Part shown: positions 11,100 to 21,893 of the stretch, piece by piece
Layout of the letters: the number at the start of each line of letters is the position of its first letter
How positions within the stretch are numbered: the first letter of the stretch is position 1
Source: a bacterium
GTDB taxonomy: Bacteria > Bipolaricaulota > Bipolaricaulia > UBA7950 > UBA9294
Length of the DNA stretch: 31,374 nucleotides
Assembly (NCBI GenBank): GCA_030671645.1
Contig: DAOVHV010000001.1
Span: 1 to 31,374 of the forward strand
Direction: 5' to 3'
The notes under the pieces: generated by a model
Database searches by the model: none
What the model was told of the DNA's origin: nothing
The model's input: the letters and a program-made list of their open reading frames with translations, nothing else
Translations under genes and position numbers: made by a program

Positions 11100-12638
11100 C
11101 TAGAAGTCTGCAACCGCTTCTCCGGCCGTTCGCAATTGGATCGCCTCGGCAATGTGTTCGGCTCGGATCACGCTCGAATTCGCCAAATCAGCGATAGTGC
11201 GCGCCACCCGACGAATGCGAACATGGGCCCGCGCGCTGAGCCCGAATCGAGTTACCGCCCTCCGGAGCAATTGTTGAGCGCTCTCCTCCAAAATACAGTC
11301 GGTCTCCAGGCGCTCTCCATCAAGCTGTGCATTGGAATGGCAATCCTCGTCCTCCCTCATCCGATCCCACTGGATTTCACGAGCGCGAGCCACTCTGTCG
11401 TGGACGCGTGCTGATGACTCGGCAACGTGAGTCCCGAACAGATCGTCGGCCGGCACGCGAGGGACCTCGACGCATAGATCGATGCGATCCAAGAACGGAC
11501 CGGAAAGCCGCTTGCGATAGCGGCGGATATCGTGCATCGAGCAGGTGCAGGCCTGAATCGGGTCCCCGAGGAAGCCGCATGGGCAAGGATTCATGGCGGC
11601 AACAAGCGTAAATGCAGATGGAAATCGTACCGAGATCCCGGCGCGGGAAATGAGAATCGAGCGATCCTCCAGCGGTTGGCGCAGCGTTTCCAGGACCCGC
11701 CGATCGAATTCAGGAAGCTCGTCCAGAAACAAGACTCCATGATGGGCCAGACTGATCTCTCCCGGCCCGGGAACCCCGTGTCCGCCTCCCACCATGCCGG
11801 CATACGAAATGGTGTGATGCGGCGCCCGGTACGGGCGCCGCCATACTAGAGAGGCTCCACGCTCGAGCATTCCCGCCGTGCTGTAGATGCGCGTTACTTC
11901 CAGCGCCTCATGGAACGATAGCGCCGGAAGTAAATCGGGCATGCAGCGGGCAAGCAGACTTTTCCCCGAGCCTGGCGGTCCGATCATCAATAAGTTGTGG
12001 CCTCCGGCGGCCGCGACCTCCAGGGCACGTTTGGCTTGCAGCTGCCCGCGCACTTCGGCCAGTTCATGACGAAACGACGGCTGCTCCATGGAGCGCAGGG
12101 CATTCCGATCGACCGACACTGGCGCAATCGTAATCTCACGATTCAAGAAGCGCTGGACCTCGAGCAAAGTTTGCACCGGATATACGGGCTTGTCGGTAGC
12201 AACGGCCGCTTCGAGCGCGTTGTCCTGGGGAACAATCAGTCCATCGATTTCGTTTGACGTCTCGAGAGCAATGGGAAGTACACCACGCACGCCACGCACC
12301 TCTCCGTTTAAGGCAAGCTCCCCGAGCAACAGATTACGTTCCGTGGTTTCAGCGATCTGCCCAGTGGCAATGAGGATGGCAACGGCAATAGGCAGGTCGA
12401 AACCGACGCCCTCCTTTCTCAGATCCGCCGGCGCCAGATTGGCCGTAATTCGCCCGGCGGGGAAGCTAAATCCGGCGTTCTTGATGGCACTTCGAATACG
12501 TTCCCGGCTTTCCGCCACATCTTTCTACGGCAGCCCAACAATATTGAACGTGGGCAGCCCCCCGGATCAATCGCATTGAGTCTCGATCAGTCGCGCTTCG
12601 ATTCCGAGAACAACCCCACTCAATAAGCGTGCGAACAT
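11100..12638 (-). pseudogene. comM: ComM/YifB family AAA+ ATPase with two in-frame stops in the N-terminus
   Basis: From ATG 12638: MFARLLSGVVLGIEARLIETQCD*(TGA 12569-12567)SGGLPTFNIVGLP*(TAG 12527-12525)KDVAESRERIRSA. It continues in frame into the 472-aa track ORF with GPPGSGKS, HHGVLFLDELPEF, MNPCPCG, LDRID. Confidence 0.85.
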
Positions 12639-17439: not shown

Positions 17440-18693
17440 ATGCAAGTTCGTGAACTTTACACCAACGCAACCGAAGCGACACTGAACAACGGACTGCGGA
17501 TCCTCGTAGAGGAGGTTCCGCGGTCTCGTTCTGTTTCCACTGGTATCTGGATTCGGGCCGGCAGTCGAGACGACCCCGAGCATCAACAGGGGCTGGCACA
17601 TTTCATAGAACACGTGGCGTTCAAGGGCTCGCCCACTCGCGACGCTCGTGCCATTTCGCACGAGATCGATGCCGTGGGCGGACATCTAAATGCCGCCACC
17701 GCCAAGGAAATCACCTTCTACTACGCCGACGTACCGGCCGATGGTTTGGCAACAGCCTTGGACATCCTGGCCGACCTATCGTTGAATCCGAAGTTCGATT
17801 CGTCTGACATCGATCTGGAACGCAACGTCATCCTGGAAGAGATCCGGGGACATGAGGACGATCCGGAGCAAATGGCCTATGACCTGTTCAGCCAAGGATT
17901 ATGGGCGGATCGACATCCGTTCTCGCGATCCGTGGTGGGAACGCGACCTGCCATCGACGCCGTTCAACCGACAGACATTCGTGCATTCCATCAAGCGCTA
18001 TATCAACCCGACAATATGATTCTGGCCGTATGCGGCGCCGTCGATGCCGAGGGGGTAATTCGGCTCGCCAAGGAGTTCTTCGGCGTCAAGGCAGCCGACG
18101 AGCAGCAGGTCCCGCAAAGAGCGGCTCCCGTCTTCCAAACCGGGACTGCTCATCACGAGCGCCCTACCAGCATGACGCACATCTACGTGGGAACCGATGC
18201 GCCCAACGCCGCTCACGACGATCGAATTGCGTTAGAGGTCGTCAACTCGATCCTCGGAGACGGAACCAGTTCGCGCCTGTTCCATTCCATCCGTGAGACC
18301 CGAGGATTGGCCTATGCCGTCACCAGCTATATCAACAGCTTCTCAGACGGAGGCCTGTGGTTGACCTATGCCGGTGTCACTCCCAAGAATTCCGAGACAG
18401 TCATCGAGCTGATCCGCGCCGAATTCGATGGGCTGCTGTCCCAGCCCATCCCGGAAGACGAACTGAATCTCGCCAAGGCCAAACTTCGTGGCCATTTGAT
18501 CTTGGGGTTGGAAACTAACGGACATCGCGCCTCTCGGTTGGCCAACGCCGTGCTGCAACAACGCGACATCCTGTCTCCGGACGAGATGTTGGCACGCCTG
18601 GATGCCGTAACTTGTGACAGCGCCCACGAAGTCCTGTCGAAGTACCTCCAACCGGATCGACTGAACATCACCACGGTGGGCCCTTCCACATAG
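17440..18693 (+). CDS. M16 family (inverzincin) zinc peptidase
   Basis: AGSRDD...GLAHFIEHVAFKG (HxxEH), LNAATAKE, ERNVILEE, SSRLFHSIRETRGLAY; conserved position after pnp. Confidence 0.92.
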   Translation: MQVRELYTNATEATLNNGLRILVEEVPRSRSVSTGIWIRAGSRDDPEHQQGLAHFIEHVAFKGSPTRDARAISHEIDAVGGHLNAATAKEITFYYADVPADGLATALDILADLSLNPKFDSSDIDLERNVILEEIRGHEDDPEQMAYDLFSQGLWADRHPFSRSVVGTRPAIDAVQPTDIRAFHQALYQPDNMILAVCGAVDAEGVIRLAKEFFGVKAADEQQVPQRAAPVFQTGTAHHERPTSMTHIYVGTDAPNAAHDDRIALEVVNSILGDGTSSRLFHSIRETRGLAYAVTSYINSFSDGGLWLTYAGVTPKNSETVIELIRAEFDGLLSQPIPEDELNLAKAKLRGHLILGLETNGHRASRLANAVLQQRDILSPDEMLARLDAVTCDSAHEVLSKYLQPDRLNITTVGPST

Positions 18694-18734
18694 CCTATTG
18701 CTCTCCCGAATTCCGGAGAGTACCATGAGGCATC

Positions 18735-19226
18735 ATGGCTATTGCAATCTATCCAGGAAGTTTCGATCCGATCACGAACGGGCACATTGACATTGTCCGC
18801 CGGGCAAGAAAACTGTTTCCCAAGCTCTACATCGCCGTGGTCGCCAATCCTCACAAGAGTCCGACGTTCACAGTCGAAGAACGCGTAGAGATCACCAAAA
18901 CAGCGCTCATCGAAGCCGGCATCAACGGATTGGAAGTTATCAGCTACGATGGCCTGCTGATCGATTGTGCGCGCGAACATGGAGCTGACGCTATCGTGCG
19001 CGGACTGCGCGCTAACTCTGATTTCGAATACGAATTCCAAATGGCACTCACCAACCGCGACCTCGCGCCTGAGTTCGAATCAGTATTCTTCATGACCGCA
19101 AAGAAATACAGCTTCCTGTCGTCGTCCACTGTCAAGGAAATCTGCATGTACGGCGGAGACGTGTCGACGTTCGTACCTAGGTCGGTGGAAGCCGCTCTGA
19201 AGAAGAAATTACAGACGAAGAAGTGA
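18735..19226 (+). CDS. coaD: Phosphopantetheine adenylyltransferase
   Basis: YPGSFDPITNGHIDI, IVRGLRANSDFEYE, FLSSSTVKEI. Confidence 0.97.
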   Translation: MAIAIYPGSFDPITNGHIDIVRRARKLFPKLYIAVVANPHKSPTFTVEERVEITKTALIEAGINGLEVISYDGLLIDCAREHGADAIVRGLRANSDFEYEFQMALTNRDLAPEFESVFFMTAKKYSFLSSSTVKEICMYGGDVSTFVPRSVEAALKKKLQTKK

Positions 19227-19240
19227 AGCCACCGGCTTCA
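19224..19240 (+). terminator. Hairpin at coaD stop (possible weak terminator)
   Basis: TGAAGCC-ACC-GGCTTCA; no U-tract on the + strand. Confidence 0.3.
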
Positions 19241-19596
19241 AACACGCAAAGTACGGCGGGTAGCGAGCCAGCCTATCTTCCCCGGTAGTTCGGAGTTCCC
19301 TCACTAAATAGGAGTTCGCACCTTGGACGAGGCGATTGATCGATTCGTTGAGCGTCCTTTGGTCCTTTCGCTCCGGTTGTGCGACCGGGACAACATGGCG
19401 ACCACGACAAGGGATCACGTTCAGTTCATCAGGCCACGTGCCACACCCAGATGTTTTCGATGTCATTTCGCACCCCTGTCAGGCGCTACAGCTCCTTGCG
19501 GAGCCATATTCGGATAGGATAAGCATACTTCTCAGACCTTGCTACCTCGGAGCGATGGAGGTGGGTTTGAGCTTCAACACGAGCCAGGAGGCAAAC

Positions 19597-20586
19597 GTGG
19601 CTAAGCGAGTGGACAAACCAACGTACGAGATTGATCCCGCCGTTCATGGACGATTCGACGAACGCGACACGATCTTCATGCGCCGCTTCTGGGATCATGC
19701 GGCAAGTTTTCACGGTGTCGAGTTCCGCGACCGGGCGGCCGAGCGAATCTCGGCGAAGGAAGCTGGCTACTCGCGGATTGACTTCGCCCGCGTTCTTGCG
19801 TCGTGGACGGTACACAACTGCTTCGGCGGCGCCTTTTCGTGGGATCGCCTCGGACAGGCCGACCCGAGCATGATGCAGTTCGACCGCTATGAGGCCGACC
19901 CGGAAGAAATGACCGCGGAGGTCAAGCGGACCGCGCGGCTGTTCGGGGCCGATCTGGTCGGCATCTGTGAAGTCAACGATCAGTGGATCTATTCCCATGA
20001 TCGCAGCGGCGACCCGGTGGAGATCCCCTCCGAATGCACGCACGCCATCGTGATGGCAATCGCCATGGACAAAGAAGGCGTAGCGACGTCACCTGAATAC
20101 TCGTCCGCGGTCTCGACCGGTGTTGGCTACTCGAAGATGGCATTTGCCATCGCCAGCCTGTCTGAATTCCTGCGCAATCTACGATACAAGGCACTGCCGA
20201 TGGGCAACGACACCGCGCTCAGCATCCCGCTGGCCATCGACGCCGGACTGGGGCAGCTTGGGCGGAACGGACTGCTGATTACATCGGAATATGGCCCCTG
20301 CATCCGGCTCTGCAAGGTCTTCACCGACATGCCGCTTGTCACCGATCGGCCGATTGATTTCGGATTGACCACGTTCTGTCGGACCTGCGATCGATGTAGC
20401 GAGGCTTGCGGAGCCGACGCAATCAGCACCGACACTGAGCCGACGTTCGATGTCGCATGTCCGTAGAACAACCCTGGGATCAAGCGATGGGCAGTAAACG
20501 CCGACCGCTGCTATGAGTTCTGGGCAGAGAACACGGCCGCATGCTCCAACTGCATCGCCGCTTGCCCATTCTCAAAGATCAACTAG
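19597..20586 (+). pseudogene. Reductive dehalogenase-like (RdhA family) cobalamin/Fe-S protein, no Tat signal, interrupted by in-frame TAG at 20464-20466
   Basis: AGGAGG then GTG 19597; GADLVGI, GYSKM, SIPLAIDAGLGQLGRNGLLIT..YGPCIRLCKVFTD, DRPIDFG..FCRTCDRCSEAC. Reading through the TAG gives NNPGIKRWAVNADRCYEFWAENTAACSNCIAACPFSKIN* (second Fe-S motif). Pseudogene, sequencing error and readthrough cannot be distinguished here. Confidence 0.75.
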
Positions 20587-20635
20587 CCTACGCAGCGCAC
20601 GAAATCGTCAGACTTACAAGAACACGATCGGCGAC

Positions 20636-20979
20636 TCATCTCTGTGGATCTTCGACAAACCCAAGCCAGCAACCATCCGGACCGAGTATGACCATCGGTG
20701 TAAACGCATCATAGATCAAACGTAACCCACCTGCATCTACACGCTCACGGCCTAAATCTCATGTACCCATCGTCCGTAGCCATCATCCCCCACCCCCCCC
20801 GCCAACGTTGCTGCCACACCGATCCGTACCAATGCCACAGCCACATTGGCCGCTGATCCGCCACCATGTAACTGAGGAGCGGAGTTGGTCAGATCAGGTG
20901 GGCCTGATGTGCGATCCGGCAAACGAACGAGCATGTCTACACATGCATCGCCGAGTACTACTACCTGCGAAGCAGGCAT
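20636..20979 (-). pseudogene. PfkB/ribokinase-family sugar kinase remnant (frameshifted and truncated)
   Basis: VVVLGDACVD, GGGSAANVAVALVRIG, GGVGDDGYGR are PfkB signature 1. After a 1-nt shift near 20758 it continues DLGRERVDAGGLRLIYDAFTPMVI to TGA at 20638-20636. About 115 aa in total versus about 300 aa typical; no GAGD motif. Confidence 0.75.
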
Positions 20980-20982
20980 GTC

Positions 20983-21651
20983 TTACGAAGCTCCTTGGGC
21001 CGCCATCACAAACTGACGGATACGGTCAAGGTCTTTGCGAAAACCGCCACTCGGTAACGGCCGGTTTGTGTGTGTGAGCGAGTCCACGCCCCATGGCTGC
21101 ACCATGCGGATGGCCTCGGCTACATTCTCCGGCGACAGCCCCCCCGCCAAGATGACGGGGATCTTTAGTTGCCGGACAATCTCGCGGCTTACATTCCAAT
21201 CGTGGGTTACGCCGGACGCACCGATCCCCGCGATATCCGGGGCTTGCGTGTCTAGAATGAGATAGTCGGTCACATCCTCGTATGCCAACGCAACATCTAC
21301 TGCCTCGGGGCCGGCGACGGAGACCGCCTGCATGACGGTCAGATCGGGCAACCGTTCCCGCAGAGTACGTACGGCATCGGGAAGGAGCGTGTTCTCCAAT
21401 CCGCAGAGATGCAAGACATCAGGATGGACTGCTTGTACCATCGTTTCAATTGCATCCAAATCCGACTCTACCGACAGGGCGACACAGACAGCCGAATCGG
21501 CGACTGCCTCTACAATCGCTCGCGCGGTGGTAAAGCCCACCTCACCGGGCAGACCGAAATTGCCGGGTGTTATACCAATATGATTGACACCCAACGCGAC
21601 TACAGCATGAGCTTCGTCGACAGTTTGCATGGTATAGATCTGGATTCTCAT
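20983..21651 (-). CDS. TrpF (phosphoribosylanthranilate isomerase)-like TIM barrel, atypical
   Basis: LILDT, GASGVTHDW, PVILAGGLSPENVAEAI, PWGVDS, KDLDRIRQFV match the PRAI fold. The N-terminal KICG is replaced by QIYT. No other trp genes nearby. Confidence 0.8.
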   Translation of the reverse strand: MRIQIYTMQTVDEAHAVVALGVNHIGITPGNFGLPGEVGFTTARAIVEAVADSAVCVALSVESDLDAIETMVQAVHPDVLHLCGLENTLLPDAVRTLRERLPDLTVMQAVSVAGPEAVDVALAYEDVTDYLILDTQAPDIAGIGASGVTHDWNVSREIVRQLKIPVILAGGLSPENVAEAIRMVQPWGVDSLTHTNRPLPSGGFRKDLDRIRQFVMAAQGAS

Positions 21652-21833
21652 GCGATTCCTTATCTTGGCACGTTTTCCGCCCTTGCCACGCTTTCGCCAT
21701 GTCTTCTATTTCCTCATACTGATTTGCTGTTCTCGCATTTCATGATACAGATGTGTAGAGTTCGAGCAACGGAGGCTGTCCAGCCTATTGAGGTTAGGAA
21801 CACGAAGAATGAAAATCTGCCCGGAAGCCATTC

Positions 21834-21861
21834 CAAAGGTCAAGAAACAAGACCTAACCCC
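21834..21861 (+). repeat. REP-like 28-bp dispersed repeat, copy 1
   Basis: CAAAGGTCAAGAAACAAGACCTAACCCC; 24/28 identical to the reverse complement of 25404-25431. Confidence 0.6.
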
Positions 21862-21893
21862 GAGACCTGCACTGCTGTCGCGCTTCCTGTAGG

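Follow-up and report, generated by a model that had tools for sequence, protein, structure and literature searches.

A gene of the reductive dehalogenase (RdhA) family, coding for a leaderless cytoplasmic protein, is interrupted by one in-frame TAG in a Bipolaricaulota contig (DAOVHV010000001.1, assembly GCA_030671645.1, positions 1 to 31,374; these 31,374 nucleotides are the window analysed here). The TAG is an ordinary young knockout or a base error, not stop-codon recoding. It is probably a real, very recent and private loss-of-function allele, in which case the strain haplotype followed by the assembler would carry a recent loss-of-function allele of an accessory rdhA-like gene.

Reading frame of the rdhA-like gene

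The initial annotation described a frame of 329 codons with a TAG at codon 290, and its coordinates are confirmed (Table 1). The GTG at 19597 is taken as the right start because AGGAGG lies 5 nt before it and because nearly all homologues start at the same M/V-x-K-R position in the alignment. A longer frame from a TTG at 19336 would add 87 in-frame residues, which match no family and which the homologues do not reach. At the other end, the terminal TAG sits where homologues end.

The 39 residues behind the internal TAG, described as homologous from the outset, produce a TIGR02486 match of their own (profile positions 243-280, 22.3 bits, E 1e-4) and hold the family-invariant residues C305, W309, N312, C316, C319 and C323. 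Past the TAG the gene has no further start codon in frame (ATG, GTG or TTG), which rules out a split gene or a two-piece protein at this site.

Table 1. Features of the rdhA-like gene, the neighbouring pfkB remnant and comM, in window coordinates
Feature	Position	Strand	Remarks
rdhA-like gene	19597-20586	+	329 codons plus terminal TAG (20584-20586); interrupted at codon 290
Shine-Dalgarno AGGAGG	19586-19591	+	5 nt 5' of the GTG start (19597); direct sequence reading
Tyr178 codon (GYSK)	20128-20130	+	Equivalent to PceA Tyr246 and NpRdhA Tyr426; invariant in 61 sequences
Arg237 codon (CIRLCKV)	20305-20307	+	Equivalent to PceA Arg305 and NpRdhA Lys488; invariant in 61 sequences
First Fe-S motif, C261-x2-C264-x2-C267-x3-C271, then Gly	20377-20409	+	Aligns with the first CxxCxxCxxxC motif of PceA
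In-frame TAG, codon 290 of the rdhA-like gene	20464-20466	+	Replaces the family Ser codon (TCG in nearest relatives)
Second Fe-S motif, C305-x10-C316-x2-C319-x3-C323-P	20509-20568	+	Aligns with the second motif of PceA; 3' of the TAG, lost when truncated
pfkB remnant, 75 aa	20752-20979	-	Matches the first 66 of 302 PfkB kinase profile positions, E 2.5e-9
comM	11100-12638	-	Stops at codon 24 (TGA, 12567-12569) and codon 38 (TAG, 12525-12527), both private

Catalytic residues and iron-sulfur motifs

Residues were mapped by tracing the profile alignment gap by gap onto 4uqu and 4ras. In the initial annotation, the Tyr of GYSK, the Arg of LGRNG and the Lys of RLCKV had been placed where catalytic residues are expected. 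The Tyr holds (Y178 = Y246/Y426), but R223 of LGRNG and K240 of RLCKV are conserved family residues and not the catalytic partner, which is R237. NpRdhA R552 aligns with the invariant W309 of the rdhA-like protein.

Eight cysteines (261, 264, 267, 271, 305, 316, 319 and 323) are in frame and all align with PceA, the last four of them behind the TAG. The first motif does end in CG in this allele, as had been noted, and the absence of Pro is a family trait, since the family mostly has C-E there. The second motif had been given as C-x11-C; its actual spacing is C-x10-C (C305 to C316). The proposal that truncation strips Fe-S ligands is borne out by the position of C305, C316, C319 and C323. Judging from the PceA alignment, a 289-aa product that lacks four of the eight invariant cluster-ligating cysteines would be unable to build its pair of [4Fe-4S] clusters, and no activity is expected of it. 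Termination at the TAG, with no later in-frame start, would thus leave the cell with an inactive product.

Origin of the stop codon

Serine occupies codon position 290 in 34 of 34 aligned homologues (19 diverse sequences and 15 listed members of the 90% cluster), and relatives encode it as TCG, TCA or TCC. L003, a syntenic contig from another sample that is 99.27% identical over 11.3 kb, reads TCG. Compared with these alleles, the TAG is a single C-to-A transversion from the TCG codon of Ser290, in agreement with the TCG>TAG change suggested earlier. An assembly or consensus artefact, such as a strain path taken at low coverage or a C>A miscall of the damage type, is a distinctly less likely source of the TAG than a genuine mutation; the organism's gene would then be intact, with TCG. 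The serine in L003 and in all 15 listed cluster members fits such an artefact.

The sequencing runs point in the same direction. Logan contigs of the four best-matching cold-seep runs all have C at 20465 at full depth; three of the four are shallow, at about 6-11x. The best-matching run holds 0.87 of the sampled words, with another haplotype. The TAG allele was found in no run and no other assembly, and five other samples or assemblies read TCG. A run search with the 65 bases around the TAG sampled only 2 words and returned one run with one of them, while exact look-up of the truncated 289-aa and 299-aa products gave no match in other assemblies.

Compared with L003, the rdhA-like gene shows 19 differences, of which 17 are synonymous, one is missense (N292 here, Ser in L003) and one is nonsense, for a dN/dS of about 0.04 by a rough count of synonymous and non-synonymous sites. 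Behind the TAG, the 39 codons differ by five synonymous changes and one missense change; as these are nearly all synonymous, the TAG appears young and the gene free of decay, a state that an artefact would also leave. The nonsense change is one of only two transversions among the 19 differences, a pattern that damage or error would explain as readily as a fresh mutation. The TAG also belongs to a private haplotype block (20465A, 20471A, 20484G, 20496A). None of the four runs matches the block from 20465 to 20496, as expected of an artefact, yet besides the stop, two of its changes are synonymous and the third gives the Asn most often found there in the family. Because synonymous changes and a family-typical residue are not the pattern of random error, the block looks like a genuine allele.

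Evidence from the rest of the contig

The quality of the surrounding consensus favours a real mutation. Over 17.8 kb compared with L003 and L015, differences are mostly synonymous outside two small clusters, frameshifts are absent, and the sole indel (2 nt) falls in non-coding DNA, so the consensus error rate is low. A contig that otherwise differs mainly by synonymous transitions and has no frameshift in 17.8 kb argues against an artefact. The long essential genes rpoB, rpoC, dnaE and uvrA (about 4300 codons) are likewise free of internal stops, a test of weak power given that about 1.4 would be expected at the window's rate. A genome-wide scan that used codon and dicodon models to look for in-frame stops between two stretches of coding signal is not discriminating and returns mostly abutting genes.

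A second gene of the contig, comM, is interrupted twice (Table 1). L015, a contig that is 99.4% identical, has GTA and GAG at the two stop sites and an intact comM of 512 aa, and once the stops are read through the full ChlI N-domain is recovered, its PF13541 score rising from 113.6 to 139 bits. Within 66 bp of the cut-off 5' part of comM, seven differences from L015 occur, six of them transversions and with clustered missense changes among them; from the GTG at 12518 on, differences are mostly synonymous. Such missense clustering in the cut-off part alone speaks for real mutation on this contig. All three stops on the contig, one in the rdhA-like gene and two in comM, involve C>A on the + strand, which suits a damage-type miscall. 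An error rate that yields three stops in 31 kb would, however, also yield dozens of missense changes, which the comparisons do not show. A genuine private mutation of very recent date thus stays the more probable source of the rdhA-like TAG.

Accessory setting of the gene

The rdhA-like gene is flanked on its 5' side by rpsO, pnp, an M16 peptidase gene and a cytidylyltransferase gene. On the 3' side, in convergent orientation, a 75-aa PfkB N-terminal remnant is followed by a PRAI-like gene. The remnant lies directly downstream of the PRAI-like gene and its end is about 165 bp from the rdhA stop; the rest of pfkB was probably removed by deletion or insertion at the rdhA 3' flank. Divergence from L003 is concentrated here, with 60 of 82 differences falling in 19244-21873 (2.6 kb), so that it reaches about 2.3% there and about 0.26% in the rest. 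Five missense and three synonymous differences from L003 fall in the PRAI-like gene, which was found in none of seven other genomes of the genus. The clustered divergence, the absence of the PRAI-like gene from genus relatives and the cut-down pfkB together make the rdhA segment look like a variable accessory islet, and loss-of-function alleles are expected in such DNA.

A dicodon model trained on the genome's own long ORFs scores the 30 codons before the TAG (20374-20463) at -5.6 and the downstream part at +2.5. The negative score may reflect foreign codon usage of an acquired gene, or just a weak model.

Comparison with L015 brings two further features of the contig to light. At the 3' end of the M16 peptidase gene (window 18429-18742, L015:7850-8160) the two contigs diverge sharply: most of the 52 differences in a 1550-bp stretch of 96.6% identity lie there, against 99.4% identity over the 6.5 kb before it, a contrast suggestive of a recombination or strain-mosaic breakpoint. 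At L015:4615-6540, three antisense ORFs are called where the window has pnp. The DNA there is 99.4% identical with no stop-making difference in pnp, and the antisense calls are probably a gene-calling oddity of that record.

Family identity and predicted fold

Profile searches used the curated cut-offs of 160.35 for TIGR02486 (NCBIfam, reductive dehalogenase), 200 for TIGR00276 (QueG) and 24.3 for PF13486. The rdhA-like protein scores 199.2 bits against TIGR02486 when read through and 170.4 bits when truncated, both over the cut-off. The QueG model gives 43.6 bits, with a match confined to residues 207-279. The original assignment to the RdhA family, with QueG as the competing identity, is therefore upheld by the HMMs. 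A profile built from 20 family members finds PceA with E-values of 1e-65 (8q4h) and 8.5e-62 (4uqu), NpRdhA with 7e-38 and QueG with 2e-10.

An AlphaFold2 model of the rdhA-like protein, computed from 61 sequences, has a pLDDT of 93.8 and a pTM of 0.92. Foldseek places this model closest to PceA (E 1.4e-25, TMq 0.84-0.87), then NpRdhA (0.72-0.76) and QueG (0.44-0.48). The predicted model fits PceA and in it the protein has an RdhA fold with a putative corrinoid-binding core. A QueG identity is rejected both by HMM (43.6 versus 200) and by fold (TMq 0.44-0.48 versus 0.86 for PceA).

Localisation of the protein

The rdhA-like protein lacks a Tat signal. Its start, M/V-x-K-R-V-D-K-P, has no h-region, and its sole RR (R29-R30) is part of a folded region. 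Hydropathy over 19 residues peaks at 0.98, with no membrane helix, and no rdhB-like or small hydrophobic ORF is found in 18700-21700. The initial annotation, which had listed a missing Tat motif, membrane anchor and rdhB, is correct on all of these. With no Tat signal, RdhB partner or rdh operon, the protein is judged to be cytoplasmic and not periplasm-facing or respiratory.

Relation to characterised enzymes

PceA of Sulfurospirillum multivorans (PDB 4UQU, 4UR0) and of Desulfitobacterium hafniense (8Q4H) is the best match in both sequence and fold, with 26-30% identity. The Tyr246/Arg305 dyad of PceA is kept as Y178/R237, as are the eight Fe-S cysteines and a Trp at the position of NpRdhA R552. 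Unlike PceA, the rdhA-like protein is about 130-170 residues shorter, its gene comes without Tat signal, RdhB partner or rdh operon, Gly or Glu takes the place of Pro behind its first Fe-S motif, and its product in this assembly ends at residue 289.

The catabolic NpRdhA of Nitratireductor pacificus (PDB 4RAS, 6ZXU) shares the cytoplasmic location without Tat or RdhB, the catalytic Tyr (Y426 = Y178) and the Fe-S domain. It is nonetheless a weaker match (E 7e-38) than PceA, with an alignment limited to 4ras residues 347-572. NpRdhA has about 700 aa, including an extra N-terminal vestigial cobalamin domain, against 329 aa for the rdhA-like protein, and it has Lys488 and Arg552 where the rdhA-like family has Arg and Trp. 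Pfam and NCBIfam profiles detect no reductase domain in the rdhA-like protein that would correspond to the NAD(P)H reductase module of the NpRdhA/BhbA type. QueG (PDB 5D08, 5D6S) is similar in superfamily, length, cytoplasmic location and use of B12 with two [4Fe-4S] clusters; it differs in that its model TIGR00276 fails on the rdhA-like protein (43.6 versus 200) and in its fold (TMq 0.44-0.48).

Work on 165 cold-seep metagenomes (Han et al., Microbiome 2025, PMC12219181) has described RdhA-like proteins that are cytosolic and have no leader, among them a short "simplified cytosolic" type. The average given there is 395 aa, with Chloroflexota and Desulfobacterota named, and cold-seep RdhA genes are under purifying selection (PMC12219181). 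Judged by that description, the rdhA-like protein shares the cold-seep habitat, the absence of Tat, rdhB and transmembrane helix, an N-terminus that is shortened and has no vestigial second cobalamin domain, and purifying selection. It differs in belonging to a clade of about 330 aa, the close members of which carry the labels Bipolaricaulota or Anaerolineae. RdhA homologues that stand alone and lack a leader are already a described class in this habitat (PMC12219181).

Distribution of the clade and an alternative function

The rdhA-like protein has more than 2000 database matches of about 330 aa, and the 120 best of these are 53-99% identical to it. Among the matches listed, named homologues are few and are called either "reductive dehalogenase" (Candidatus Bipolaricaulota, Anaerolineae) or, by JGI, "epoxyqueuosine reductase". 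Sequencing runs that contain the rdhA-like sequence are cold-seep and marine-sediment metagenomes. A literature search found nothing specific on RdhA in Bipolaricaulota or Acetothermia and no characterised member of the ~330-aa clade.

Of 41 related genomes, counting the window's own, 14 have a homologue (13 of 40 without it), as do two of seven other genomes of the genus. A genome of the same family has two rdhA-like copies, one of them with an in-frame TAA (G014:C44:310-1299), so nonsense disruption of this gene is not confined to TAG. Neighbourhoods are unrelated at the six places shown for four homologues: depending on the locus, the neighbours are YgjP and rubrerythrin; AlkZ, PEP mutase and OYE; aldo-keto reductase with Fe-S and enolase-family genes; or FMN reductase. 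At none of the six places does an rdhB, Tat, rdh regulator or small membrane-protein gene, or an operon partner, lie beside the homologue. The rdhA-like gene is accessory and patchily distributed, and its clade is scattered horizontally.

Some of these traits could also suit a protein that is not a dehalogenase, and instead a QueG-like or other B12-dependent reductase of a conserved non-halogenated metabolite. By analogy with QueG and epoxyqueuosine, the ~330-aa clade may be a cytoplasmic B12/Fe-S reductase of one specific, widespread sediment or cellular metabolite, a proposal that we consider improbable. In its favour, the family is unusually conserved among RdhAs (53-88% identity in 60 sequences aligned from the 120 best matches), has one or two copies per genome, and comes without rdh accessory genes or conserved neighbours; the name "epoxyqueuosine reductase" in some sources agrees with it. 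PF13486 gives the rdhA-like protein only 17.6 bits against its cut-off of 24.3, and many short-clade homologues likewise fall under it. The low QueG score and the poor fold match to QueG speak against the proposal, as do the invariant dehalogenase proton-donor Tyr with its Arg partner, and the patchy distribution argues against a housekeeping role. A putative reductive dehalogenase remains the better description of the protein.

Improbable decoding of the TAG

Decoding of the TAG by pyrrolysine, a suppressor tRNA or programmed readthrough, which would yield a full-length enzyme, is hardly credible: the 39 downstream codons are intact and under purifying selection, as decoding would have it, but PylS, PylB, PylD and a tRNA-CUA are missing from the genome as recovered, TAG is a common terminator, and no homologue has TAG at the site, all having Ser (TCN). 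The metagenome-assembled genome searched for amber machinery spans 1.2 Mb, is 73.5% complete and yielded 11 tRNAs, so that absence of the machinery from it is not proof. No PylS, PylB or PylD exceeds its cut-off there; PylS and PylD give sub-cut-off matches to other enzymes and PylB gives none, and no tRNA-CUA is present among the 11 tRNAs. PylS over cut-off occurs in 0 of 151 genomes of the phylum, with a positive Methanosarcina control. TAG terminates 453 of 1181 long ORFs (38%) and the rdhA-like gene itself. With no PylS, PylB, PylD or tRNA-CUA found, and with TAG so common a terminator, recoding is very unlikely. Amber readthrough had been ranked last from the start, behind a nonsense change or an error, and that order stands: the pyl search was negative for PylS, PylB and PylD, and a genuine mutation is the probable reading, an artefact a clearly weaker one and decoding next to none.

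Proposed function and significance

The rdhA-like protein is, by family, a putative reductive dehalogenase, and its substrate, cofactor loading and electron donor are proposed from what is known of related enzymes. The intact protein, soluble and of 329 aa, would bind a corrinoid and two [4Fe-4S] clusters, would take electrons from a soluble donor of the ferredoxin or flavodoxin type, and would reduce a small substrate, most likely a natural organohalide. Tyr178 would serve as proton donor with Arg237 as its partner.

The gene is correctly labelled a leaderless RdhA-family gene disrupted in this assembly, and is neither a case of amber recoding nor a QueG. The ~330-aa clade to which it belongs is large, strongly conserved and closer to respiratory PceA than to catabolic NpRdhA, and the intact allele is a compact candidate for expression. 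Were the clade to reduce a single metabolite after all, alleles like this TAG would mark the ongoing loss of that activity in some strains. If the stops are real, private stops in two accessory genes (the rdhA-like gene and comM) of a 31-kb contig would point to ongoing gene loss in a small-genome sediment bacterium.
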